Shown here in pieces: positions 43,798 to 64,000 of a stretch of DNA of 64,000 nt. The notes under the pieces were generated by a model. That model made no database searches. It was not told the DNA's origin and worked only from the letters and a program-made list of their open reading frames with translations. Source of the DNA: a candidate division FCPU426 bacterium (GTDB lineage Bacteria > Oederibacteriota > PGYV01 > Palsa-1178); contig CAWIXE010000002.1 in the NCBI GenBank assembly GCA_963840035.1, forward strand, positions 864,001 to 928,000. The letters are read 5' to 3'. Numbering within the stretch: position 1 is the first letter of the stretch; each line of letters starts with the position of its first letter. The position numbers and the translations under genes are program-made.

Positions 43798-44751
43798 GTA
43801 GAGACGGGGCTCGTCCCCGTCTCGCCTTAAACACCGAGACGCCCGCGAGGGGCGTCTCTACAGGTTTGTTTGTGTCGTTGTATGGGCGATTCATGAATCG
43901 CCAATACAAATAAATTTCGTAGAGACGGGGCTCGTCCCCGTCTCGTCTTAAACACCGAGACGCCCACAAGGGGCGTCTCTACAGGTTTGTTTGTGTCGTT
44001 GTATGGGCGATTCATGAATCGCCAATACAAATAAATTTCGTAGAGACGGGGCTCGTCCCCGTCTCGTCTTAAACACCGAGACGCCCACGAGGGGCGTCTC
44101 TACAGGTTTGTTTGTGTCGTTGTATGGGCGATTCATGAATCGCCAATACAAATAAATTTCGTAGAGACGGGGCTCGTCCCCGTCTCGTCTTAAACACCGA
44201 GACGCCCACGAGGGGCGTCTCTACAGGTTTGTTTGTGTCGTTGTATGGGCGATTCATGAATCGCCAATACAAATAAATTTCGTAGAGACGGGGCTCGTCC
44301 CCGTCTCGTCTTAAACACCGAGACGCCCACAAGGGGCGTCTCTACAGGTTTGTTTGTGTCGTTGTATGGGCGATTCATGAATCGCCAATACAAATAAATT
44401 TCGTAGAGACGGGGCTCGTCCCCGTCTCGTCTTAAACACCGAGACGCCCACGAGGGGCGTCTCTACAGGTTTGTTTGTGTCGTTGTATGGGCGATTCATG
44501 AATCGCCAATACAAATAAATTTCGTAGAGACGGGGCTCGTCCCCGTCTCGCCTTAAACACCGAGACGCCCACGAGGGGCGTCTCTACAGGTTTGTTTGTG
44601 TCGTTGTATGGGCGATTCATGAATCGCCAATACAAATAAATTTCGTAGAGACGGGGCTCGTCCCCGTCTCGTCTTAAACACCGAGACGCCCACAAGGGGC
44701 GTCTCTACAGGTTTGTTTGTGTTGTTGTATGGATAATTCACGAATCGCCAA
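43798..44751 (+). repeat. Tandem array of eight 121-bp units, each with three hairpins (BIME-like)
   Basis: Units start at 43798, 43919, 44040, 44161, 44282, 44403, 44524 and 44645 (last truncated). Confidence 0.97.
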
Positions 44752-51330: not shown

Positions 51331-52806
51331 CTACTGACCCTGCCTCTTCAACCACCCCATAACTTCCCACGTAGCTTGCAAATCCTCTTCATTATACACT
51401 AAAATCGTCTTCATAAGTTCTTCCCGTTTTAAAGAATCCTTCGTCTCCATAGCCTTTATGTACTGCGCCATGGACCAAGACCCTCCATACTCTTCCTGCG
51501 ACCGCTTAAATCCCGCCAACTTCTCTAAGACCTTCAAAGAGTAACTCGGCGCAGCCAAAATCACCGATGTCCTTGCCTCCGGGTACAGGTCGAAAAGATT
51601 GGATTTCACCCTCTCCGCTATGGCTATGTCGTCGCCGTATCTTGATAAGTACAAGTCGAGTTTGGTTTTTTCGTAGCTGGAGTAGTGGACGAAAGGTATG
51701 TCTCCGTATTCGTCCAGTATGGCCTTGCTAAGCCGCAGGAACTCCAGCCACCCCTGTTTATCCCCCTCAGAGCCCATAGGAGCCACCGCAGGCGTGTATG
51801 TGGATGGTTTTGCGCCGTATACCTTCAACCCCCACAGATAGACGGTATCTATCTCATCCAGGTAAGGCGGCATGCCTTCGAGGTCGAACATTACGTAGTT
51901 GTTAAAAAAAGGTATCTTGATAGGCTGAACCCACATATGCTCCCCGCTCTTCAAAGCCCGCGCCTGGTCAAATATCCGATAAGCCCGAACCCCCACTTTC
52001 ACCATCTGCTCCCCGCGCGCCTTTTTTAAAGCCTTCAAACTGGATACATCATAGTTATCCAGCAGTTCATCCACAGTATTTATCCCGACATCCCGAAGAG
52101 CGAAAGCCGTACCCTTATCTACATCAGATAGCACAGCCACATTCATCCCATCCATAGCCGCCTTCCAGCACCCATCCCCAAACCCACACCCATTACACCT
52201 GGTCCACCCCACAGGCATATAAGGCTCCGCACCAAGCGTCTTTATATGTAATATTTTCCCCACCTCCGCCTCAGCGCTCCCCCCGCCATCATAACCAAAC
52301 TCCAGCACTGCCCCAGTCCCGCTAACCACCTGCAACCCCGCAGGCAGAGTGCCTGTGGCTTTCTGAAAAAGATACCCATAAAACTGCAACTGCTTCACCA
52401 CTTCCGTATGATGTTCCACTTCATCCACCTTCCGCGCCATCTTGGCATCGCGGATGATGTAGGAGCTGCCTGAGAGGATGAGAAAATCCGGGTTGCCGAA
52501 TATGGAGTGTTTGATACCGCTGATCGTGATTTCAGCCTGAAAGGCGGGCTGATAGATGATAGAAGTTTTAGAAGCCATAAACTTTTTTGTTTGAGTTATC
52601 TTTTCTTCCATAGTCATAGCTGATAAGTCAACATGCGGGCCTATGGATTTCAGGTGGTCGAGTTCGTGGCGTTTGCCTAGGTCGAAGAGGACTTCCTGGT
52701 ATGGGTCGAGGGGTTTTTCGGGGGTTTGGAGGGAGCGGAGGAAGAGGCGCTTCGCGCACTCTTCGGGGATGTATAGGTCGTAAATGTTGGGTGCCGATAT
52801 ATTCAT
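51331..52806 (-). CDS. TM0106 family RecB-like nuclease (PD-(D/E)xK + RNase H-like domain)
   Basis: GNPDFL..RDAK..QLQFY; C...CxxCxxxxxC; FDLEG, HYSSYE, SYSLK, YNEED. Confidence 0.88.
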   Translation of the reverse strand: MNISAPNIYDLYIPEECAKRLFLRSLQTPEKPLDPYQEVLFDLGKRHELDHLKSIGPHVDLSAMTMEEKITQTKKFMASKTSIIYQPAFQAEITISGIKHSIFGNPDFLILSGSSYIIRDAKMARKVDEVEHHTEVVKQLQFYGYLFQKATGTLPAGLQVVSGTGAVLEFGYDGGGSAEAEVGKILHIKTLGAEPYMPVGWTRCNGCGFGDGCWKAAMDGMNVAVLSDVDKGTAFALRDVGINTVDELLDNYDVSSLKALKKARGEQMVKVGVRAYRIFDQARALKSGEHMWVQPIKIPFFNNYVMFDLEGMPPYLDEIDTVYLWGLKVYGAKPSTYTPAVAPMGSEGDKQGWLEFLRLSKAILDEYGDIPFVHYSSYEKTKLDLYLSRYGDDIAIAERVKSNLFDLYPEARTSVILAAPSYSLKVLEKLAGFKRSQEEYGGSWSMAQYIKAMETKDSLKREELMKTILVYNEEDLQATWEVMGWLKRQGQ

Positions 52807-52849: not shown

Positions 52850-53938
52850 TTATTTGTACTTGATTCTTGGATGTGGTAACCTACCTTTTGTTATTCGTGA
52901 ATAATATTGCGAATAATTTACAAGTTCCAAATCACGAATTAAAGGCACTTTCCCTTGATCTCTCAACATCTTTGCTTTATCGACTTCAAAACAAAAACTA
53001 AGTCCTAAATCAATACTTAGACACTTTTGCTCAATTCCAACACAACATCCGTTTTCAGTTATTACAGAATAACCACCAAGACTTTTCACCCGTTTACTCT
53101 TTTTTTCTATCAATCTAATATATTCTTCTTTAATATGTCCATTGAAATATATTTGGTTGTTAGCATTTAAAAACTGCAAGACGTTAAGTTGATCAACATC
53201 ATTTTGTTCCTTAATAACCACAATATCAGAATTTTTTTTGCCCACATTGTAAACTTTTGAATCATAAAGCATTATTGCTCTTGTCGGCGAAATCGGCAAA
53301 AACATTTGAAGTCCGGGAGTTTGAAATCCGGCATTGCCCGATGGAGAATTGTAGTTCTCAAGAAATTGATTATACCTAACGACCGGATGATCGGAAGTAA
53401 TAAAACATTTAGGCGTTTTATTGACCAATATCTTTAACTTAAGATCAAATATTTGTACCGCCGAAGTAAGCATAAAATTCATGTAATCTTTTGCCGGTTC
53501 ATCTGAACGCAATTCGTAATCATTACAGAACTGTATATATTGCAATTCAGTAAAACCTAGTAGACCTTTTATATATTTCTTGAAATATTCATCGAGCAAT
53601 CTTTCGTGATCGTTTACAGCTTTTAAAGTACGAGTTGTAAGTGTAAAAATATAGCATAGAAAATAACCATATTCTTCCGTATCGAAACTGATAACAGTAT
53701 TATTTTCAAATTGTTCAATAACTTTGCCAGCTTGACTTTCAAGCTTAGCCAACATTTTCTCAACATGCGAATCTTTACCATAAAAATAATCTTCATAAGC
53801 CTGATTATTCAGATCGGCTTCAGCAATAATTTTATTTGTTTTTTTTATATAAGTTCCAATGTGTGCTTTCCCCGCAGTAACAGCAAACATTCTAAGATGG
53901 GATTTATTAACATAATGCTGTTTTTTATTTTTGGGCAT
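52850..53938 (-). CDS. DUF4238 domain protein
   Basis: KQHYV...L..F, FITSDHPV, FLPISP. Confidence 0.85.
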   Translation of the reverse strand: MPKNKKQHYVNKSHLRMFAVTAGKAHIGTYIKKTNKIIAEADLNNQAYEDYFYGKDSHVEKMLAKLESQAGKVIEQFENNTVISFDTEEYGYFLCYIFTLTTRTLKAVNDHERLLDEYFKKYIKGLLGFTELQYIQFCNDYELRSDEPAKDYMNFMLTSAVQIFDLKLKILVNKTPKCFITSDHPVVRYNQFLENYNSPSGNAGFQTPGLQMFLPISPTRAIMLYDSKVYNVGKKNSDIVVIKEQNDVDQLNVLQFLNANNQIYFNGHIKEEYIRLIEKKSKRVKSLGGYSVITENGCCVGIEQKCLSIDLGLSFCFEVDKAKMLRDQGKVPLIRDLELVNYSQYYSRITKGRLPHPRIKYK

Positions 53939-54295
53939 ACTTTATTTTCCTGATAAGTCTATAATCAAACGTTTTTTTGAAGGAAAAATACACAAAACAA
54001 CAGGTATTATAATCAAAATAAAGGATCTGCTTTTCAACATAAATGTATCCTATCTCTTTGATGCATCTTTTGATTTACCTTTTTTCACGTTTTCGTCATC
54101 ATTTCCTTATATGACATGCTTCTGAGCGTCTTTCAATAACTGCACAAATTTGTATCTGAGCTATTCTTCGCCATTGTACAAAGCTACATTTTGTTATCTT
54201 AATCGTTTATTTTTTTAAAATAGAATCATGAATCAGGATCTGACACATTCTATTCTTCTATTCCCTCCTCTAATTTTAAAATTAATAAAAACCAA

Positions 54296-55216
54296 CTATT
54301 TCATAACGAATTTTGATGGGTCTTTTGGATTTTGACATATTTTACTATTTATATTTAGATATCTATTTAATAAACCAATCAATCTAATTAATTCACTATT
54401 TTCAATAGAATCTAGAGCAAAAAGCTTATAAATTTTTGATCCTAGCGTTGTTATTTTGACCAAAGTTGGATTAATGGTATCAGGACTATTAAATGGATTC
54501 CCTTGATAACCACAGACTACACCGTATTGACAAAGTTCAAATAATTCGGCGTATAACGAGACGACTTCGGAATCAATGACAAAATGACCATCCCGCTGAT
54601 AGCTTAATGCTGAAAAAATACCATTGCCTTCTTCAAGTCGATCTATTAATTTGCTTTTAAACAAAGCAATTAAACAAAATTCGCTGAACGTAAATTCATC
54701 AAACATTTTAATAAAACGATAGACTTCGTTTTGATTGGAAATTGACATGTCATTAGAGATATTGATAAACAATTTTTCAAGCAAAGTATACTTTCTGCTG
54801 TCAGTTGCACGCTTAATTCTGTCATAAAAAATATCAATGATACCAATAGCAGCGCTTTGCTCGCTGAAGATAGGGTTTACTTTTTCATTTTTGTTAGACT
54901 TCATTTGTTTTAAAACTTGTTCATTAAAAGCTGAAATTCTTTCTTTTTCTTGTACATTAATCAATTGCTTGAAATAATTCGTTTTCGCCTCAATCATGCA
55001 CTGAATTAAATCATTACCAAAAATAATTACATTTATCGCAGTTTTCATTTTACTTTCCGGCATAAATTCTAATGCATCTTTAAGTCTTTCTACTAAAAGA
55101 TCAATATTTCGTTTTATAACTCCAACTGAAAGCAATTTTTTTAACAATACAACAAACGCATAACACAAAAGAAGTAAAATATAAGTATCTAAATAATTCG
55201 AATTTATCAAACCCAA
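54296..55216 (-). CDS. Hypothetical protein, last gene of the RM operon (weak Abi-alpha/DUF4393-like resemblance)
   Basis: Low GC, 36 bp after res; N-terminal hydrophobic helix; ITTLG near the C-terminus. Confidence 0.6.
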   Translation of the reverse strand: MGLINSNYLDTYILLLLCYAFVVLLKKLLSVGVIKRNIDLLVERLKDALEFMPESKMKTAINVIIFGNDLIQCMIEAKTNYFKQLINVQEKERISAFNEQVLKQMKSNKNEKVNPIFSEQSAAIGIIDIFYDRIKRATDSRKYTLLEKLFINISNDMSISNQNEVYRFIKMFDEFTFSEFCLIALFKSKLIDRLEEGNGIFSALSYQRDGHFVIDSEVVSLYAELFELCQYGVVCGYQGNPFNSPDTINPTLVKITTLGSKIYKLFALDSIENSELIRLIGLLNRYLNINSKICQNPKDPSKFVMK

Positions 55217-55252
55217 ATATCTCCAGTATAAATTTAATATTATTAAGTGTTG

Positions 55253-58200
55253 TTATCTGTTTATAGTTTCTACAAATTCAGCAATGATAGCAAACTCATT
55301 TTCTTCAGCATTAGGTATAATAATTGATGCATATGCTGGATTTATAGGTTCTAAAATGATCTCTTTGTGTTCCCAAGTCTCATCCGCTTTTTCGACTTTT
55401 TTTCTTGTGTATTTTTTTACAGTATATGTTCCACCTGTTTCAGGATCAGAAATACTATTATGTTGGACTAATACTATTTTACCTTGCCTGCTTCCAATGA
55501 CATTAGATCTAAACAGACAGTAATCTCCGTCGTGAATTCTGGGCTCCATTGAATGACCTAGTACTTTAGAAACAAACATTGTTTTATCTATTGTTTTAGA
55601 AACAATCTTTGTCCATCCTTTGGGTTCAGCAGGTACACTGTTGCCAAATAATCCACAAGCTGCTTCCAATTCATAAACAGGCACAAACTGAGTGTATTGC
55701 AATTCAGCACTTACTTCCGGCAAGATAACAAAATTTTCCTTAGACTCAGTTATATATTCAGTACCAACAATTGAAAAATCACCTTCTCTTTCCATTTGTT
55801 CGATAGTGTACTCTTTCGTGCTTTGGTTTATAGGAGTAAGATTTATTTGATATTCTGGCAGAAGCGTATTCTTGCTTTTTTTCTCTTGCATTTCAAATTT
55901 ACGGATTGTACAACAAGGATCATATTCATTGTCATCAAATTTAACTTTTTTGCTATAGACTAAGCATACTTGATTTTTTATATTTTCTGTATCAAAAGAT
56001 GAATCAAATATTATCCAGTCATTATTAGATTTCAAGGGATAAAGTGCTTCACCTTTAATTTGTATTGCAAAAACAGTTTCTGGGTATTTCTCGGTTTTTT
56101 CTGGAACCGATAGCCACGAATCACTTTTAGCAGTTTTATTTTCTTTAATAAACTTTTTATACGCGTTTATGGGTGAGTACACAGGAATATATTTAACAAA
56201 ACGCAATTCTTCCGGTGCATCCTCCAATAAATACTGCTTGTCATGTTGTTTTTTTAATGATTTTTCAGCTTGACTAATCAATTTTGCAAAATCCCATTTT
56301 TCTCTTTGAGCTATATCCATTTGTTGTGAATAGACCAATGCACTTTTATATCCTGGTATCTGATCCAATCTTTGAAGCAGAACACTTTTTTTAGTATCAG
56401 AAAATATCTCACCTTTTGTTTCAACAACATATATAACATCATTAAAGCCAATAATAAAATCAGGATAATATTTTTTGGATCCATAACTGAAATGTATTTG
56501 TCTTTGATTTCTAATCCAGAATAAATTAGCATTATCTTTTTCTTTATAAAGATAATCATTAACTATGTCTGCTAATTGTTTTTCAGGAAAAGAATCAAAA
56601 CTATTATAATCATATATAGCTTTCTCGTAGCCAAAAAAACTGTAGCCCGAACTAACTAAATTCAATATTTTGGCACTGTCAAACTTCTTCCATTTTTCAT
56701 TATTAATCTGATCTTCTGGAATTTTCATTTCATATTCTCTAAAAGTATTAATTAAATTATAAGCCTCGTCACTTTTGACCTCTCTAAAATCAATACTAAA
56801 ATAATTTTTTTCAATGTGATTTCTATAAAAGTGACTGAACGAATCAACAAATAAATTCATAGCAAGTTTGTCATCCGAATCTGTTAACTTATAGTATTGC
56901 AGTCCAATTCCATTTAATTTTTCTAAATACAAACTAAAAGCATTTTTAGTATACGCAGTGTCTGGTAAACAATGCAAATTTTTCATCGCCCTACCATAAA
57001 CTTGTTTTAATTCTTTATCAGCAAACTTCAAAATACCTATAGTTCCTCCACTTTGTTGCAACTGTTTGTGGAATTCCTTTTCATCTGCAAAAATATCAAC
57101 TTCTAAGAAAAATGTATCCGGTTTATACTTAATAAACTTTTTTATATCCGATTTTTGATCATGAAAACAATTTTCTTCTAAAAAAGAATTCGTAATTGTT
57201 TCAACATCGTTAACAAGCGGTAACAAAGCAATATTTTCTTTAACTTTAAAATCAGCTCGTATATGCGGTATGTATTTTTGATTGAGTAATTCTTTCTTAA
57301 CTTTATTAGTAATGCTTTTTCTCGGTTTGTCAGAACTAATATATTTATCCGTTAAACCGAATTCTTTTTGAATTGCAAGTATCTGTTCTTCGAAATTTTT
57401 CCCTTGATCACAGACGATATGTAACATTTCTGTTTGCTTTAAAATTGAATTTTCTGATTCATCAAATTCCCTAACGTTTTTGCTTAGTCGAACACCTCTG
57501 CCAATAATTTGTTTTACAGAAGTTTTAAAGTCGGAAGCCGTGTCTTTAATTACAGCCATTGTATAAATATTTGGGATATCGATGCCTTCATCTAATCGTT
57601 GCATATATACAACAATTTCTGTATCGTTGTATTTTATTTCTCTAAATTTCTTTTCAGTTTCTTTATCCGACTCGCCATAATAGAATATTGTTGTTTGTGC
57701 AATATGATTAATTTCTTGCCTGAGTTTCGAAATACTAGAATTAAAATCACCTTTGAACATTTGAATTAGCAACTCAGTAATATTTAACTCTTGATCTTTC
57801 AATTTATCCAAAATTATTTCGATATTTTCAATATCTGCAGATAACTCATTAATAATATATTTATATATTTTCTCAGTGAATATTGTATCGTCTTTAACTT
57901 TTATAAACGAGATAGGTTTCAAATTTGCAATTTTGTTATCCATAGCGATCGCTTTCTTCTTCAAAATATGAATTAGAAATAGTGTGATTATTTTGAACTT
58001 TTCCGATTGAGCAATTTCTTCATTTTTTCTTTTCTTTTCTTCAGGCATTAAGGCAACAGCTCTAACGAGTTTTCCATAACCATCTTCCAGGAAATGTTTA
58101 ATATCGTATTTATATACCACGGTTTGATTTCTTTTTTCATCTCCGGAATCATCTTCAATTGCTGTAGCGGTATATTCCAAAACTAGATCCGGGTGAAAAC

Positions 58201-58972
58201 TCATGATGATTTCCTTAGATTTTCTATTCTGCGCATGATGTGCTTCATCCGTTATAATTACAAGTTTCTTATTTTTCAAATATTGTTTAATACTAATATT
58301 ATTCCCGTCTTCATCTTTCCACTTAGCAGATTCCCATGTTTTAGAGGTGTTAGTTGCATTAGTTCCAAATTTTGATATATTAAAAATGAAAACATTAGCG
58401 TCCTTATCTTCATTAAAAAACAGATCTTGCGAATAGTTATCGCCTGTTACTAAATTAAATGTAAACGGAGTGTCATCAGCCCAAACAGAATCATAATTCC
58501 CTATTTGAAAATTTCTTATTGTCTTTTCATAAATATCCGTTGATGCTGGTGTAATAATAAGAAAATTCTTAATATTATATTTTTTATTTAATAGGTATAT
58601 TGCCGCTCCCATAAGCATTGTTTTTCCAGAACCTGTTGCCATTTCGAATCCCAAAAACGGTGACATTTTTTTTGAATCGATATCAACAATTTCCAACAAA
58701 TGATTAATATGTTCAATTATTCGATGATTTGGAATGTTTGTTTTAAAAAACATTTCAGCCTGAGATGTAGCAAATATATAATCCAAAATATACAATGCAT
58801 CTTTTTGATACTGTCTAAGTGGATGTTTTGTGATACCTGTTTCTAGCGTATTAAAAATAGAATATGTATTTTGGGAAAACAATTCCGTTTGTGCATTATT
58901 ATATCCGCCCAAAATTTCCACTAATTTGTCTTTATATCTTTCATAATACGTATACTTATTTTTATTTTTCAT
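55253..58972 (-). CDS. res: Type III restriction endonuclease Res subunit with two C-terminal S24/LexA-like domains
   Basis: MATGSGKT, DEAHH, TAT, EGIDIP, QIIGRGVR, YYPDF..VETKG; then IPVY..GEALYP..TIRK and VPVY..AACG..GHSMEP..TVKK. Confidence 0.88.
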   Translation of the reverse strand: MKNKNKYTYYERYKDKLVEILGGYNNAQTELFSQNTYSIFNTLETGITKHPLRQYQKDALYILDYIFATSQAEMFFKTNIPNHRIIEHINHLLEIVDIDSKKMSPFLGFEMATGSGKTMLMGAAIYLLNKKYNIKNFLIITPASTDIYEKTIRNFQIGNYDSVWADDTPFTFNLVTGDNYSQDLFFNEDKDANVFIFNISKFGTNATNTSKTWESAKWKDEDGNNISIKQYLKNKKLVIITDEAHHAQNRKSKEIIMSFHPDLVLEYTATAIEDDSGDEKRNQTVVYKYDIKHFLEDGYGKLVRAVALMPEEKKRKNEEIAQSEKFKIITLFLIHILKKKAIAMDNKIANLKPISFIKVKDDTIFTEKIYKYIINELSADIENIEIILDKLKDQELNITELLIQMFKGDFNSSISKLRQEINHIAQTTIFYYGESDKETEKKFREIKYNDTEIVVYMQRLDEGIDIPNIYTMAVIKDTASDFKTSVKQIIGRGVRLSKNVREFDESENSILKQTEMLHIVCDQGKNFEEQILAIQKEFGLTDKYISSDKPRKSITNKVKKELLNQKYIPHIRADFKVKENIALLPLVNDVETITNSFLEENCFHDQKSDIKKFIKYKPDTFFLEVDIFADEKEFHKQLQQSGGTIGILKFADKELKQVYGRAMKNLHCLPDTAYTKNAFSLYLEKLNGIGLQYYKLTDSDDKLAMNLFVDSFSHFYRNHIEKNYFSIDFREVKSDEAYNLINTFREYEMKIPEDQINNEKWKKFDSAKILNLVSSGYSFFGYEKAIYDYNSFDSFPEKQLADIVNDYLYKEKDNANLFWIRNQRQIHFSYGSKKYYPDFIIGFNDVIYVVETKGEIFSDTKKSVLLQRLDQIPGYKSALVYSQQMDIAQREKWDFAKLISQAEKSLKKQHDKQYLLEDAPEELRFVKYIPVYSPINAYKKFIKENKTAKSDSWLSVPEKTEKYPETVFAIQIKGEALYPLKSNNDWIIFDSSFDTENIKNQVCLVYSKKVKFDDNEYDPCCTIRKFEMQEKKSKNTLLPEYQINLTPINQSTKEYTIEQMEREGDFSIVGTEYITESKENFVILPEVSAELQYTQFVPVYELEAACGLFGNSVPAEPKGWTKIVSKTIDKTMFVSKVLGHSMEPRIHDGDYCLFRSNVIGSRQGKIVLVQHNSISDPETGGTYTVKKYTRKKVEKADETWEHKEIILEPINPAYASIIIPNAEENEFAIIAEFVETINR

Positions 58973-60904
58973 TTATTTTTCCAACTCCACCATAATAGCA
59001 TGTGGTACTTTAATTATTTCAAGATAATCTGGTTTAGATTCAAAAGCAATATCAACACCTCGGTTAGTAAAAATATCTATCGAATCCGGATTGAATTTAC
59101 TCTTTATTCTAGTAATAATGTCTTGTATATATTCATACTTAATCGTCTCAAGATTCTCATCTTTTTCTACAATACTGACCAAAGCTATCCTCGATCGCGC
59201 ACCTATGTGCTGAATTCCTATTTTAAAATCCATTTCACAATCTTTAAATAGATCTGTATGTTCTAAATTAGAAACATCGAGTAACTGATAGTCATAAGAT
59301 GTTAATAGTGATTCTTCTATGTGCGATGTACTTAAATTCCAATTAAAATCAATTTGCGAATTTTTGTTAAATCTAATGATCGATTCGCCTAGCGCATAGT
59401 AACTAAATCCTCCACCCCCATTCCACTTTACATTTTCTGTTATACCAGTGTCATCGGATCCATCTATAACAGATTTTAATCTTGGTATAATGTGTGTATC
59501 TGCGTGATCTCCAATCTCAACCCCGATCCAATTCATATTCATTTTATGCGCAACTGCAAGTGTAGTACCTGATCCAGCAAAACAATCTAAAACAATCTCG
59601 CCTTTTTTTGCCCCCGAAATTTCTATAATCCTTTTAACGAGCTTTTCAGGTTTCTTACTTTCCTTGAATTTAACTCCACCTTCATTTGATATGCCGTTGT
59701 ATGGAATATCCGTCCAAATATTAGTAAGCTGTTTTGTTGGCACTTGCTTTCCATCAATAGACTTAACCTTGCTGGAATAAAAATATATCTGTCTTCCATT
59801 CATTACATAAATTTCTTTATCTGTTCTATCGACCTTGAATATTTCCATCTCTTTTTCTTTTGACTTTTCTCTTGTTTCCACTATCTTTACTCCGGCATCA
59901 TCAGCAATTGCTGTAAGTTGAAACACCGACCTTGAATTCTTAAGTGCAAATTCTGCAATTTCAGACATAAAGTCAAGTTTCCCTATTTTTCCTACTGCAT
60001 CTTTAACTGAATTAAAACCTTTCAACTTTGCATAATATTCTTTAACGGGTTCTATTTTCCACTTTTTGTAATCGGAATCAATATTTACTACAATTTTACT
60101 ATAGCCTTCATCGTAATCACATTCTATATAACTTGTTTCATATTTATAGCATGTCTTATCTTTCGCATACATTAAAATATACTCAGCAGAGTCATATGGT
60201 GAAGGATTTACAGTTTTCAGACCAGACGGATCTGATGTTTTCACTGTGAAGATGTTAACAAAATTGTTTTTTCCAAATAGTTCATCTAGTAAGACTTTTA
60301 TATGAAATAAATTTTTTTGATCTAATTGAATACACAATGTACCTTCTTTTTTTAACAATTCATGCAAAATTACTAAACGGTCTCGCATTAGTGTCAACCA
60401 TTCTGATTGTGCTAAGTTGTCATCATAATGCTCGAAAGCTTGTCCCGTATTATAAGGCGGATCAATATAGATGCATTTTACTTTTTCTTGTTCATCTAAA
60501 TTTGAAAACTTCTTCTTCAAAGAATTCAGCGCTAATAAATTATCGCCTTTAATAAGAATATTTTTTTGTAGAGAATCTTCCTTTTTTTCTTCTACAACTT
60601 TATATACATTATTTTTGCCTATTGAACCATTTTTACTGCTAGTATAAACAAAGTATGTTTTATTATGAATTAATGGTCTTGCCTCTTTAATTCTTATGTC
60701 GCTTCTATTAACCCAATAAGGTGTTCTGCCCTTTCCAATTTCAGAATTGATTTCATAAAAAAGCGATTCATCTTTATTTACCCAATCAATCACAGGCGCT
60801 TGAACATCAGATTTTATCAGCTCATCTTTCTGTTTACTCAACATTATAGCTTTTTGTTTATTGTACCATTCTAACGAAAGAGATCCTTTATAACTTTTAG
60901 ACAT
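58973..60904 (-). CDS. mod: Type III RM DNA adenine methyltransferase Mod subunit
   Basis: GDNLLAL, IYIDPPYNTG, KPEKL, LDCFAGSGTT..AHKM (beta-class order); abuts res. Confidence 0.92.
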   Translation of the reverse strand: MSKSYKGSLSLEWYNKQKAIMLSKQKDELIKSDVQAPVIDWVNKDESLFYEINSEIGKGRTPYWVNRSDIRIKEARPLIHNKTYFVYTSSKNGSIGKNNVYKVVEEKKEDSLQKNILIKGDNLLALNSLKKKFSNLDEQEKVKCIYIDPPYNTGQAFEHYDDNLAQSEWLTLMRDRLVILHELLKKEGTLCIQLDQKNLFHIKVLLDELFGKNNFVNIFTVKTSDPSGLKTVNPSPYDSAEYILMYAKDKTCYKYETSYIECDYDEGYSKIVVNIDSDYKKWKIEPVKEYYAKLKGFNSVKDAVGKIGKLDFMSEIAEFALKNSRSVFQLTAIADDAGVKIVETREKSKEKEMEIFKVDRTDKEIYVMNGRQIYFYSSKVKSIDGKQVPTKQLTNIWTDIPYNGISNEGGVKFKESKKPEKLVKRIIEISGAKKGEIVLDCFAGSGTTLAVAHKMNMNWIGVEIGDHADTHIIPRLKSVIDGSDDTGITENVKWNGGGGFSYYALGESIIRFNKNSQIDFNWNLSTSHIEESLLTSYDYQLLDVSNLEHTDLFKDCEMDFKIGIQHIGARSRIALVSIVEKDENLETIKYEYIQDIITRIKSKFNPDSIDIFTNRGVDIAFESKPDYLEIIKVPHAIMVELEK

Positions 60905-60914
60905 TTTTTCACTC

Positions 60915-63635
60915 CTATTTGTTTTTAAACCTACAAACGCAATCCGGCTTGTTACACGAATGGTCTAATTCGTTCTTTCGTATTGCATTTGCAGCATCAA
61001 TAATTTTCACTTTCATCTTATTAAGATCTTTTGATGTTAATTCGTTTTTAAAAGGCTCATTTTTATCCAAATTATATATTTCTAAAAAATCTGCATTTTC
61101 TCCGGTTAATTCTTTATAACCCAGAGCATATAACTGTAGCTGATCTATTGATGCATTATATGCCTGGGCATCTTCAGTTGATTTAAAATCAATAATTGTC
61201 TTTTCAAATGTGCCATCAACATTTTTACGCTTTATTAAGTCCATTTTACCATTAACTAGAATTCCATCTCCCAAATCAACCTGTATCTCTTTTTCTGCAA
61301 ACTCAATATGCTGAAATTCTTTCGAATTCTTGTCAAAATATATCTTTAACGATTCTTCGGCTCTTTGTGACATTTCTGCAATCATTTTATCCGTGGCGTA
61401 TGGAAAGTTCTTATGCCTATTCAATAATTCCGATAATTGATCTTTACTAATAACCTTCCCTGCAAGTGTTTCTTTGTGAAGTTCCATTAACGAGTTATGA
61501 ATAGCTGAACCGAAGCCCATTCTGGCGCCTCTTGGTGGCTGAAAACCGTAAAAAGTCCAGAATTTAAAACTATATGGACAATCAAAATATGACTTTAACA
61601 ACGAAAAATTTAAAGCAATATTTGCAGTCTCTATCGATGGTCTCGGTATAGTTTTTTCTCTTTCTGACCAGTTCCTTTCCAGGGATTGCATTACAAAGTC
61701 TGAAGTTCTTATTTCCGACCCAAAGATTGATTCTTTTTGTTGTTGTTTCCCGTCAGGTGCTCTAGAAACAATCAAAAACTTTTTGGATCTAGTAATTGCA
61801 ACATACATCAATCTACGCTCATCTTCTACATGAGGAAAATATCTGTCATAGTCCCGGATCAATGCCTTATCAATGAAGTGCCAGACTTGCTTTCCAGTCG
61901 GTTGACTAGTTGGAAGATAGTTCTTATTTAATCCAGGAATAAAAACAACAGGAAATTCAAGCCCTTTTGCCTGATACACAGTCATTATCTGTACCGCATT
62001 AGGCGTTTTATATGAATTATTCATCCAGCCTTCTGGATAGTAATCTTCAGCAGAGTATTTTAAAAAATTTAAGAAGGTATCTAGTTTATACGCAGGATTT
62101 GACGTTTTAAAATATACAGTTTCAAAATCATTAATTATCTGGCTAAACATTCCCAAATTATAGAATACGATTTCGTTGTTTCCATATCCACTTGCAGTAT
62201 GCGAATCAACAACAAAAGCCTCTTCACGTACCCCTGCTTTATCCAAAAAATCCATATATATTTCTTGAATATTGAACCGTTCATAATATGTGTCTCTATT
62301 TGGCACTTTTTTATTAAGCTGATTAATTGCTTGATCCAGGTCAGCATCTTGAATCCTATCCGATAATTCCTTCCAATGATGTTTTAATACTTCTTTATCA
62401 ATTTCTTCATTCAGATATTGAAAGATTGCTTTTGCAGCCCTGGCTTCAGGCCTCTGGAACAAATTATTTACTCCAGTGACGATAAAAGGTATGTTTTCGT
62501 GTTGTAATGTTTCTATAATTGCCTCAGCTTTCTTCCATTTACGAAGCAAGATTACAAAATCCGAATAGTCTAACCCTCGCTCTTCAGAATCTTCTTTATC
62601 ATTGAATTTAGTTCCTCTTAAATTTCTTATCGATTTAACAATAAAATCATTTTCACTTGCCACATCATTAAACTGGTTATAAATAATATCGCCTCTTTCA
62701 TATTTTTGAAAACCCTCTGCATTCATTGTTTTTGCAAGGCGATTAGTGTTATTTGTAATTACTTTTAATGCAACATCCACAATAGCGCCAGAGCTTCTGA
62801 AATTATCCTGCAATGGAACATAATCTACATTTTTATAACGATCTCTAAAATTTCTTATAAATTCAATATGCGATCCACGCCACTGAAAAATTGTTTGATC
62901 ATCATCTCCGACAACGCAAACATTAGCCCCCATCAGGTACAGCTGTTCAACAATCTGCTCCTGAACGGGATTTACATCCTGATATTCATCAACAATCAGA
63001 TATCCAATATTCTCGGCGATTTTTTGTTTGAACACATCATCATTCTTGATGTGCTCCAGAGCTTTAGTCATAATCATTGTAAAATCCATGTATGCATGAT
63101 CCATTAAAACTTTTTCATATTTTTCTTTTGAATCAAGAATATTTTGCGGTATAACTGCCCCCGGAACAAAATCAGATTCACGTACGATTCCCATCAATTG
63201 AATGAAATGACCGGTATCTTTAAAACGCTCCATATTTAGATCTTTCATGCCAATATTTCCAAAACTCCTATCAACAAAAAGTTTAAGTTTTACCTCATCT
63301 AAAACAGAAAATTTCTGGAACTCGTACTTATTTTGCTGAAGAATATTTAGACACCAGGAATGGATCGTTCCAACGTACATTTCAGCGATACCTGCAATTT
63401 CAGGTGCTTGTTCTCTACAAAGCTTCAAAATTCTTGCTTGTAGTTCTCCCGCTGCTTTTTCTGTATAGGTAAACGCGATAATTTTTGATGGACTAATTCC
63501 GCTTTTCAAAATGCTTATAATTCGCTGCGAAATAACCTGCGTTTTTCCCGAACCAGCGCAGGCAATTATTTGAAGCGCTTTATCAATAGTGTTGTAAGCT
63601 CGCTCTTGATCTTTAGTGTATTTTGGAATGGACAT
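60915..63635 (-). CDS. UvrD/REP-like SF1 helicase fused to a PD-(D/E)xK nuclease
   Basis: AGSGKT, VDEYQD, VGDDDQ.IF.WRG, NFRS, QAKGLEF, YVAITR; CPY..GKMDLI..IIDFK..QLQLY..CxxxxCxC. Confidence 0.92.
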   Translation of the reverse strand: MSIPKYTKDQERAYNTIDKALQIIACAGSGKTQVISQRIISILKSGISPSKIIAFTYTEKAAGELQARILKLCREQAPEIAGIAEMYVGTIHSWCLNILQQNKYEFQKFSVLDEVKLKLFVDRSFGNIGMKDLNMERFKDTGHFIQLMGIVRESDFVPGAVIPQNILDSKEKYEKVLMDHAYMDFTMIMTKALEHIKNDDVFKQKIAENIGYLIVDEYQDVNPVQEQIVEQLYLMGANVCVVGDDDQTIFQWRGSHIEFIRNFRDRYKNVDYVPLQDNFRSSGAIVDVALKVITNNTNRLAKTMNAEGFQKYERGDIIYNQFNDVASENDFIVKSIRNLRGTKFNDKEDSEERGLDYSDFVILLRKWKKAEAIIETLQHENIPFIVTGVNNLFQRPEARAAKAIFQYLNEEIDKEVLKHHWKELSDRIQDADLDQAINQLNKKVPNRDTYYERFNIQEIYMDFLDKAGVREEAFVVDSHTASGYGNNEIVFYNLGMFSQIINDFETVYFKTSNPAYKLDTFLNFLKYSAEDYYPEGWMNNSYKTPNAVQIMTVYQAKGLEFPVVFIPGLNKNYLPTSQPTGKQVWHFIDKALIRDYDRYFPHVEDERRLMYVAITRSKKFLIVSRAPDGKQQQKESIFGSEIRTSDFVMQSLERNWSEREKTIPRPSIETANIALNFSLLKSYFDCPYSFKFWTFYGFQPPRGARMGFGSAIHNSLMELHKETLAGKVISKDQLSELLNRHKNFPYATDKMIAEMSQRAEESLKIYFDKNSKEFQHIEFAEKEIQVDLGDGILVNGKMDLIKRKNVDGTFEKTIIDFKSTEDAQAYNASIDQLQLYALGYKELTGENADFLEIYNLDKNEPFKNELTSKDLNKMKVKIIDAANAIRKNELDHSCNKPDCVCRFKNK

Positions 63636-63859
63636 CTTACTCCCTGGGTATTTACCCCTACGCCTAAAATAAGACTTTAATGAACAGAATTATTACCTTT
63701 TACATTATCAAACAATTAACTTTAACATACCTTTTCAAATAGTTCTAGTACTTGTTCAAATTCCCAACACCGTGCCTTGACTCAAGACATTATACTAAAT
63801 TTCATTATATTTTATTAGTATTATATTTATAATTGCATAAATAACGCACATTTATTACT

Positions 63860-64000
63860 TTAAATTCGTTCTGTCACCCATTTTATTATTTCGTCTGTTG
63901 CGTCAACAACAAACTCCTGCCCCTTATCAGCGGCTTTAAAGTAACCTTTCTGCCAATTCTTATCCGTATGGTAGCTCATGCCCTTGAAATATTCCGGCAG
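63860..64000 (-). CDS. 3' end of an unidentified CDS (partial)
   Basis: Open frame ..LPEYFKGMSYHTDKNWQKGYFKAADKGQEFVVDATDEIIKWVTERI*; GC returns to background. Confidence 0.6.
   Translation of the reverse strand: MPEYFKGMSYHTDKNWQKGYFKAADKGQEFVVDATDEIIKWVTERI

Follow-up and report, generated by a model that had tools for sequence, protein, structure and literature searches.

What use could a restriction enzyme have for two LexA-like domains, one of which has apparently lost its catalytic residues? The question is raised by a Type III-like Res gene in the stretch of 64,000 nucleotides of bacterial DNA analysed here, the window. The product of this gene ends in a tandem of S24 peptidase-like domains, one dead and one intact. 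The initial annotation read the tandem as an intramolecular pseudo-dimer that may couple restriction to the sensing of DNA damage or single-stranded DNA (ssDNA). Judged from its sequence, the locus is a real feature of a Type III-like system, and the function that we assign to it is a proposal.

The Res locus and its neighbours

A Pfam scan of Res finds ResIII (E 3.9e-22), and the PADLOC REase_III profile matches it over partial stretches only (E 1.8e-16). The SF2 helicase core is followed by a PD-(D/E)xK nuclease, the domain order expected of a Type III Res. A search for Res homologues gave 227 matches among 7994 scored candidates, and 120 of the 227 were listed and analysed. Distant Res loci (L044-L076), mostly from Helicobacter and 23-37% identical over part of the protein, are excluded from all counts. 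Across the 120 listed homologues the helicase motifs are near-invariant, and the P-D and E-x-K motifs of the nuclease are kept in 119. We know of no S24 domain in the Res of EcoP15I. The profile of the present Res family leaves EcoP15I Res unmatched at E 0.01, and the kinship between the two appears to be distant.

The three genes of the unit, uvrD-nuclease, mod and res, lie on one strand with tight spacing, all inside a low-GC island (Table 1). The mod gene directly abuts res (60904-58973, then 58972-55253). In Mod, DPPY at residue 148 precedes FAGSGTT at residue 442, which is the β-class order, and the protein matches EcoP15I Mod (PDB 4zcf) with E 3.9e-18. EcoP15I is described as a Mod2Res1 complex (PDB 4zcf), in which Res consists of RecA1, RecA2, a helical spacer and an endonuclease domain (PMC4490356). 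The window's system is like EcoP15I in its adjacent mod and res genes, its homologous β-class Mod, and a Res with a tandem RecA-like SF2 core and a C-terminal endonuclease. Unlike EcoP15I as described (PMC4490356), the window's Res has S24 domains after the nuclease, and its unit travels with a UvrD-nuclease gene.

The UvrD-nuclease gene, a conserved third gene, is missing from the initial annotation. Pfam recognizes UvrD-helicase (E 3e-53) and PDDEXK_1 (E 2.9e-15) in its product, the helicase and nuclease motifs of which are kept in 47 full-length copies. At an identity of at least 45%, the UvrD-nuclease is found at 38 of the 38 assessable loci with an S24-bearing Res; six further loci are too short. 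Among S24-less relatives of Res, a distant UvrD is found in 10 and none in 13, and 22 are too short. The 38 UvrD-bearing loci are kin, so they amount to one linkage and not to 38 independent ones. The cluster itself has been known since 2017, when Hudaiberdiev et al. reported that a UvrD-Cas4 fusion most often lies beside Type III mod and res (PMC5704561). The window has the same three genes, with mod and res beside an SF1 UvrD that is fused to a PF12705 nuclease (PMC5704561). The main text of that paper makes no mention of S24 or LexA; on the cluster it gives genomic context only, and the S24 states and the re-capping are not described there (PMC5704561).

A gene of 306 aa lies downstream. 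A full-length Res match is absent from all 60 relatives searched, and a search for tRNAs in contig positions 915000-946999 found none. A search for sequencing runs listed no RNA run and one DNA run, with a share of 0.06.

Table 1. Features of the restriction locus, in coordinates of the window.
Feature	Position	Strand	Details
Low-GC island	52850..64000	.	about 29-36% GC against 47% for the genome; extends past the window to about C2:931000
UvrD-like SF1 helicase fused to PD-(D/E)xK (Cas4-like, PF12705) nuclease	60915..63635	-	906 aa; conserved first gene of the unit
Type III Mod, β-class adenine methyltransferase	58973..60904	-	643 aa; PADLOC MTase_III E 3.8e-104
Type III-like Res (SF2 helicase, PD-(D/E)xK, dead S24, intact S24)	58972..55253	-	1239 aa; Pfam, PADLOC
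SF2 helicase core of Res, aa 50-540	57353..58825	-	GSGKT, DEAH and QIIGRG intact
PD-(D/E)xK nuclease of Res, aa 781-900	56273..56632	-	D838, E851, K853
Repeat 1, family-standard dead S24 domain, aa 920-1075	55748..56215	-	Ala976 for Ser (56047-56045), Arg1024 for Lys (55903-55901); basic helix-loop replaces the cleavage site
Short linker between the S24 domains	55709..55747	-	only low-confidence segment of the model
Repeat 2, intact, probably later-acquired S24 cap, aa 1089-1239	55256..55708	-	Ser1141 (55552-55550), Lys1186 (55417-55415)
Predicted scissile bond, Cys1106-Gly1107	55652..55657	-	Ala/Cys-Gly in 120/120 listed modules; cleavage predicted

An intact and a dead S24 domain

The two S24 domains make up the final 320 residues of the Res ORF. 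After the nuclease residues (PD838...E851-x-K853) come, in order, GEALYP (974-979), TIRK (1022-1025), AACG (1104-1107), GHSMEP (1139-1144) and TVKK (1184-1187). Thus, all of the motifs quoted in the initial annotation are found in the order given, and Pfam Peptidase_S24 matches Res in two stretches (E 1e-14). The repeats are 22% identical, with a z of 12.3 against 1000 shuffles, and a profile-profile alignment (hhalign) of the dead and intact clades gives 99.75%. In register, Ala976 takes the place of Ser1141, Arg1024 that of Lys1186, and Tyr938-Lys939 that of Cys1106-Gly1107.

An AlphaFold2 model of residues 920-1239, made from 83 rows, has a pLDDT of 91.5 and a pTM of 0.63, and its two halves have the same order of strands and helices. 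The predicted repeat 2 matches LexA (1jhc) with Z 13.3 and rmsd 2.8 over 120 aligned residues, the cleavage-site region included. The predicted fold of repeat 2 is that of an S24 peptidase. In the model, a helix occupies the cut-site position in both repeats. In repeat 2, for which only five distinct sequences gave coverage, this helix (model 183-192) lies over the scissile bond, so that it would have to unfold for cleavage. A model built from the single sequence (pLDDT 32) was discarded, as was alignment A3, in which every single domain fell on repeat 2. A phmmer search of the PDB with the tandem gave two chance matches only (E 0.015-0.018).

Repeat 2, here called the cap, was taken to be intact, and AACG, Ser1141 and Lys1186 are indeed all present. 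As modelled, it is an S24 fold with a Ser-Lys dyad and an Ala/Cys-Gly site. When longer proteins were searched with repeat 2, 226 matches were obtained among 394 candidates, and 120 of the 226 were listed. In these 120 modules Ser is kept in 119 and Lys in all; the cut site is Ala-Gly in 65 and Cys-Gly in 55; and 119 modules retain both dyad and site. Of the 119 other carriers listed, 118 have the module at the C-terminus, and none has it twice. By manual reading of the match table, DUF2075/SLFN-g3 helicases account for 88 of these 119, and the further listed carriers include HsdR, HsdS, other Type III Res, Type IIG and SNF2 proteins. Six carriers were rescanned for domain content; AbiO/Nhi-like DUF2075 proteins carry the same module. 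Viral contigs searched with six exact patterns contain no relative of the cap.

Repeat 2 is like LexA, UmuD and lambda CI in its predicted fold, dyad and Ala/Cys-Gly site, and in that a cut would release the N-terminal part from the S24 domain. It is unlike them in that this N-terminal part is a helicase-nuclease of 1100 aa rather than a HTH domain or a polymerase accessory, and in having an inserted acidic loop and a longer hairpin. A further difference is the presence of repeat 1, a putative pseudo-enzyme with a basic loop at the cleavage site. Our literature search turned up no S24 domain reported on a restriction enzyme, though one may be described in subscription papers or supplements. 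S24 fusions are not described in the available text of Millman 2022, the Druantia III preprint or the His-Me review.

Repeat 1 was described as apparently dead and devoid of an AxG loop, and this reading stands, as Ala976 replaces Ser and Tyr938-Lys939 occupies the scissile pair. The TIRK motif is present as reported, but its Lys is not the catalytic one, the corresponding position being held by Arg1024. It follows that repeat 1 has lost both catalytic residues, and it is most simply seen as a pseudo-peptidase without dyad or cut site. Its identity as an S24 domain comes mainly from sequence. Repeat 1 alone matches Pfam S24 with E 1e-4 and 22.4 bits, slightly below the cut-off of 23.3. Family copies of repeat 1 give S24 matches at E up to 1 in 28 of 41 cases, and the first ESM Atlas match (0.96) is to an S24 cluster. 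Fold searches are dominated by repeat 2; repeat 1, modelled as part of the tandem, is the aligned part in few rows only, and these include signal peptidase SpsB (Z 6.0-6.4). A dead-domain profile finds nothing among PDB sequences at E 10 and gives 1.7% against the host LexA. A homodimer prediction for the dead domain scored 0.15 against a mark of 0.42, in a run in which the controls did not fold.

The dead domain is a standard part of the family. It is present in 116 of the 120 listed Res homologues. Of the four exceptions, P0116 shows an apparently clean loss, one sequence breaks off within the domain, and two seem to be in the wrong frame at the tail. Ser and Lys occur together in none of the 116 (Ser in 13, Lys in 2, Arg in 109), and Gly is at the scissile position in three. 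The loop carries a conserved basic segment, with a mean charge of +4.0 in dead domains versus -2.4 in intact modules. Among 14 locus pairs, omega of the dead domain was estimable in eight, with dS near saturation: seven of these give 0.08-0.15 and the eighth 0.54. In every one of the 14 pairs, the helicase has changed more slowly than the domain. By these sequence comparisons, the dead domain is under purifying selection.

A profile search of 1.84 billion representatives with the domain gave 486 matches. The 150 that were listed comprise 39 dead-like, 110 intact-like and one spurious match. Dead-like matches longer than 215 aa have Res upstream in 18 of 18 cases, one tandem fragment aside, and the remaining 20, of at most 215 aa, have no Res match. 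Among the matches listed, the dead form is specific to the Res family.

Distribution and history of the S24 domains

The tandem architecture singled out in the initial annotation recurs in the family. A second S24 domain is found in five of the 120 listed Res homologues, and a single dead domain with no second S24 in 111. A larger collection of 219 Res sequences, made up of the 120 proteins and, overlapping with them, 99 ORFs from the loci with a length of 850 aa or more, was scored by script as 153 single dead, seven single intact, five tandem, one partial and 53 without S24. One locus scored as dead (L131) retains Ser, Lys and AACG, and manual inspection shows it to be intact. None of the 53 S24-less Res reaches 1000 aa.

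Where did the caps come from? In a tree of 148 domains, for which dead and DUF2075 copies were subsampled, the 72 dead copies form one clade (FastTree 0.979), and the window's cap groups among the DUF2075 modules, being 60% identical to the best one. Its identity to the other four caps is 31-44%, and these are 19-23% identical to their own repeat 1. On a 38-row tree of the Res core (LG+G4, quick tree), the five tandems fall in four separate places, and a single tandem clade is rejected (AU p 1.0e-7). This argues for about four separate gains of a cap and against duplication. Internal duplication was also considered for the window's tandem and rejected, the cap being 21% identical to its own repeat 1 versus 60% to a DUF2075 module. 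An assembly artefact or a lost stop codon is judged unlikely, on account of the four further full-length tandems and the one tandem fragment. The dead and intact repeats, as their sequences indicate, are not a co-evolved pair.

When the tree is rooted with an S24-less outgroup, a five-row clade of single-intact Res is sister to the rest. The sequences suggest an order of events, as follows. An intact module was gained, catalysis was lost, and some members of the family were then re-capped. Two single-intact Res (L008 and L009) change place between trees, from near the base to within the dead clade, so the intact-then-dead order is likely, though not settled.

A proposed SOS switch and its alternatives

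LexA, UmuD and CI cleave themselves when RecA filaments stabilise the cleavage region (PMC9926225). RecA F203 enters a LexA pocket made of F111, L113 and V153, and LexA D150-E152 meet a basic patch (PMC9926225). In LexA-like proteins, C-degrons for ClpXP are hidden beside the cut site (PMC5742171). Damage-induced relief of Type IA/IB restriction is described as degradation of HsdR by ClpXP (PMC12707154).

Our leading, still tentative, proposal is that the cap is an SOS off-switch. That is, self-cleavage on RecA filaments (RecA*) would expose a LexA-like degron, while the dead domain would keep a non-catalytic binding role. The parts of this proposal differ in strength: RecA*-dependent cleavage of the cap is probable, and an off outcome by degron exposure, given cleavage, is somewhat favoured. 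RecA filaments would trigger self-cleavage at Cys1106-Gly1107, which would free 133 residues and leave a Res that ends in LEAAC, with the dead domain intact. The new Ala-Ala-Cys end is a candidate degron that would likely send Res to ClpXP, and the chromosome would thereby be spared while repair creates unmethylated sites. The dead domain would be a former switch turned into a standing non-catalytic module. Its job would most likely be the binding of DNA or of the RecA-ssDNA filament via the basic loop, or else complex assembly. Such a standing job would explain both the loss of cleavage and why a second domain was added and the first not replaced.

We favour the off-switch because the predicted new C-termini are Ala-rich (nearly all xAAA or xAAC across the 120 modules), because LexA-type proteins carry degrons of this sort, because HsdR offers a ClpXP precedent, and because the host genome encodes recA with lexA beside it as well as clpP and clpX. 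The cleavage site of the host LexA is AC|G, like that of the cap. The coupling to RecA* and SOS first suggested in the initial annotation is thus plausible for the intact repeat, in view of the joint preservation of dyad and site in the modules and of the host recA and adjacent lexA; its pseudo-dimer basis fares less well, as set out below. The proposed removal of a restriction subunit by proteolysis after DNA damage would be like the alleviation known from EcoKI and Type IA/IB enzymes (PMC12707154). It would be unlike EcoKI in that ClpXP there attacks a translocating HsdR that has no built-in protease (PMC12707154), whereas the window's Res would cut itself via RecA*. In the literature searched, so far as its text was available, we found no account of a Type III counterpart of ClpXP restriction alleviation.

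The opposite outcome has also to be weighed. The cap could be an inhibitory lid, such that RecA*-triggered, UmuD-like cleavage activates Res in infection or DNA damage and restores the family-standard form. Apart from about 30 additional residues, the cleaved product would match the dead-domain form of 111 of the 120 listed relatives, and the module also sits on AbiO/Nhi-like DUF2075 proteins, where infection-triggered activation would make sense. We nevertheless regard this outcome as unlikely. It is hard to see why a system protected by methylation should be off by default, and to activate Res during chromosome repair would be risky. In addition, the strongly Ala-rich new ends resemble LexA-type degrons, and the single-intact relatives would lose their sole S24 domain on cleavage.

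Contacts to RecA were mapped by residue offset from the catalytic residues, not by structure. By this mapping, the cap has aromatic residues at the LexA F111 and V153 offsets in 120 of 120 modules each and a small residue (Ala, Val or Ser) at the L113 offset. At least two acidic residues, shifted by an insertion, precede the Lys strand in 118 of 120. In 110 of 116 dead domains the F111 offset holds Phe or Tyr, and in 108 of 116 the TIR strand is preceded by two or more acidic residues. The dead domain may therefore still dock on RecA-ssDNA or DNA, although this is a weak lead and the aromatic residue is possibly just structural.

The residues kept by the dead domain would also suit a model in which both domains are mainly non-cleaving binding modules (for the RecA groove, ssDNA or dimerisation) that bring Res and the UvrD-nuclease to recombination intermediates, cleavage being secondary. 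The same can be said of the purifying selection on a domain without catalysis, of the helix modelled at the site in both repeats, and of two tandem caps (P0021 and the fragment P0250) in which Ser and Lys are kept and the cut site is Ala-Thr, so that not every cap need cleave. We consider pure binding quite unlikely, since it would make needless the dyad and Ala/Cys-Gly site that are jointly intact in 119 of 120 listed modules.

The reading with which the initial annotation organised the tandem, in which the dead and intact repeats sense RecA* or ssDNA as one pseudo-dimeric unit, was not upheld and is improbable. It has a model in LexA and UmuD, which bind RecA filaments as dimers with protomers of unequal role (PMC9926225), and the linkers are alike, at 25-31 residues between matched anchors, in five tandems of several origins. 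Against it, 111 of the 120 listed relatives have a dead domain with no second S24 domain in the chain to pair with, the tandems are not one clade, and the caps come from different donors, the window's being far closer to a DUF2075 module than to its own repeat 1. A partner domain is not needed, since the monomer of lambda CI suffices for binding RecA (PMC9926225), and the pTM of the model (0.63 at a pLDDT of 91.5) does not show a fixed arrangement of the two repeats. As a last model, the cap could be a mobile domain that becomes fused to defence genes in its vicinity and persists as a tolerated, neutral passenger until its loss. This would suit its presence on only five of 120 listed homologues, its absence from P0119 beside the capped neighbours P0081 and P0094, and the abundance of the donor module on other defence genes. 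The model is very improbable all the same, as the fusions in several lineages are in frame and at one position, their linkers are similar, and Ser and Lys are kept in all five tandem caps and Ala/Cys-Gly in four of the five.

The SOS off-switch could be extended beyond the window, in a form that is possible but doubtful. Restriction enzymes would carry a portable LexA-type cassette that is wired directly to RecA filaments and whose built-in degron destroys or resets the enzyme. One Type III lineage would have turned its cassette into a non-catalytic module that binds RecA or ssDNA and works with the UvrD-nuclease, and several descendants would have regained SOS control via a fresh cassette.

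The Res family offers a natural series on one scaffold: no S24 domain, a single intact one, a single dead one, and dead plus intact. The question is therefore testable by domain deletions and point mutants within one enzyme. That the dead domain is conserved suggests a second use for the S24 fold, one without proteolysis. The sparing of the cell's own chromosome by restriction during repair has been described for some Type I enzymes, through ClpXP. If the off-switch proposal is true, the LexA-type cap would tie restriction to the SOS signal by a direct connection that is encoded in the gene. Through such a connection, phages or DNA-damaging stress could give foreign DNA a temporary opening.

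C-terminal variation of the Res relatives

The inactive S24 domain of Res (the dead domain) carries a conserved Leu-Phe pair at its hairpin tip, with Leu in 96 and Phe in 100 of the 120 homologues. P0116 seems to be the sole homologue without this domain; its final residues are QLSLI, an end that may resemble a sliding-clamp motif. In the relative P0112, the dead domain is followed by a different 200-residue extension (residues about 1090–1293) having no Pfam match; the same position takes other add-ons too.

Surroundings of the operon

The features on either side of, and within, the uvrD-mod-res operon are collected in the table. The 306-aa ORF behind res found no match in Pfam, PADLOC or NCBIfam and did not turn up in the 43 related loci checked. 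At the other end, the gene for Nmad3 (nucleotide modification associated domain 3) is within the low-GC island, just past the window end. The Cas4/AddB-like cysteines of the UvrD-nuclease family occur in two spacings, C-x4-C-x-C in the subgroup of the window's protein and C-x2-C-x5-C in most other members.

Positions of features in and around the operon
Feature	Position	Strand	Remark
TM0106-family RecB-like nuclease/RNase H gene	window 51331-52806	-	after DUF4238 gene; GC host-like
DUF4238 gene	window 52850-53938	-	on island edge
306-aa ORF	window 54296-55216	-	immediately 3′ of res; GC island-like
Leu-Phe of dead-domain hairpin tip	window 55859-55864	-	Res 1037-1038
Cas4/AddB-like cysteines, UvrD-nuclease C-terminus	window 60918-60960	-	
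Nmad3 gene	L078:861-1646	-	upstream of UvrD gene

Elsewhere in the window, two near-identical 87-codon frames lie 363 bases apart (44069-44332 and 44432-44695), suggesting a direct repeat. In a Maribacter locus, res has two neighbours immediately 3′ of it (L007:13197-14926), one umuC-like and the other an S24-like gene of 149 aa.

Genes inserted between uvrD, mod and res

In six related loci (L004, L008, L010, L022, L023 and L040), extra genes sit between uvrD, mod and res. Across this set the inserts are a nucleotidyltransferase with Cap15, DarT with Macro, and GmrSD with AAA/DUF3696; further inserts are PIN, a ClpP-like SDH protease and an IS200 transposase. The operon appears to be a hotspot for insertions, chiefly among those relatives whose Res has one S24 domain with its catalytic residues kept.
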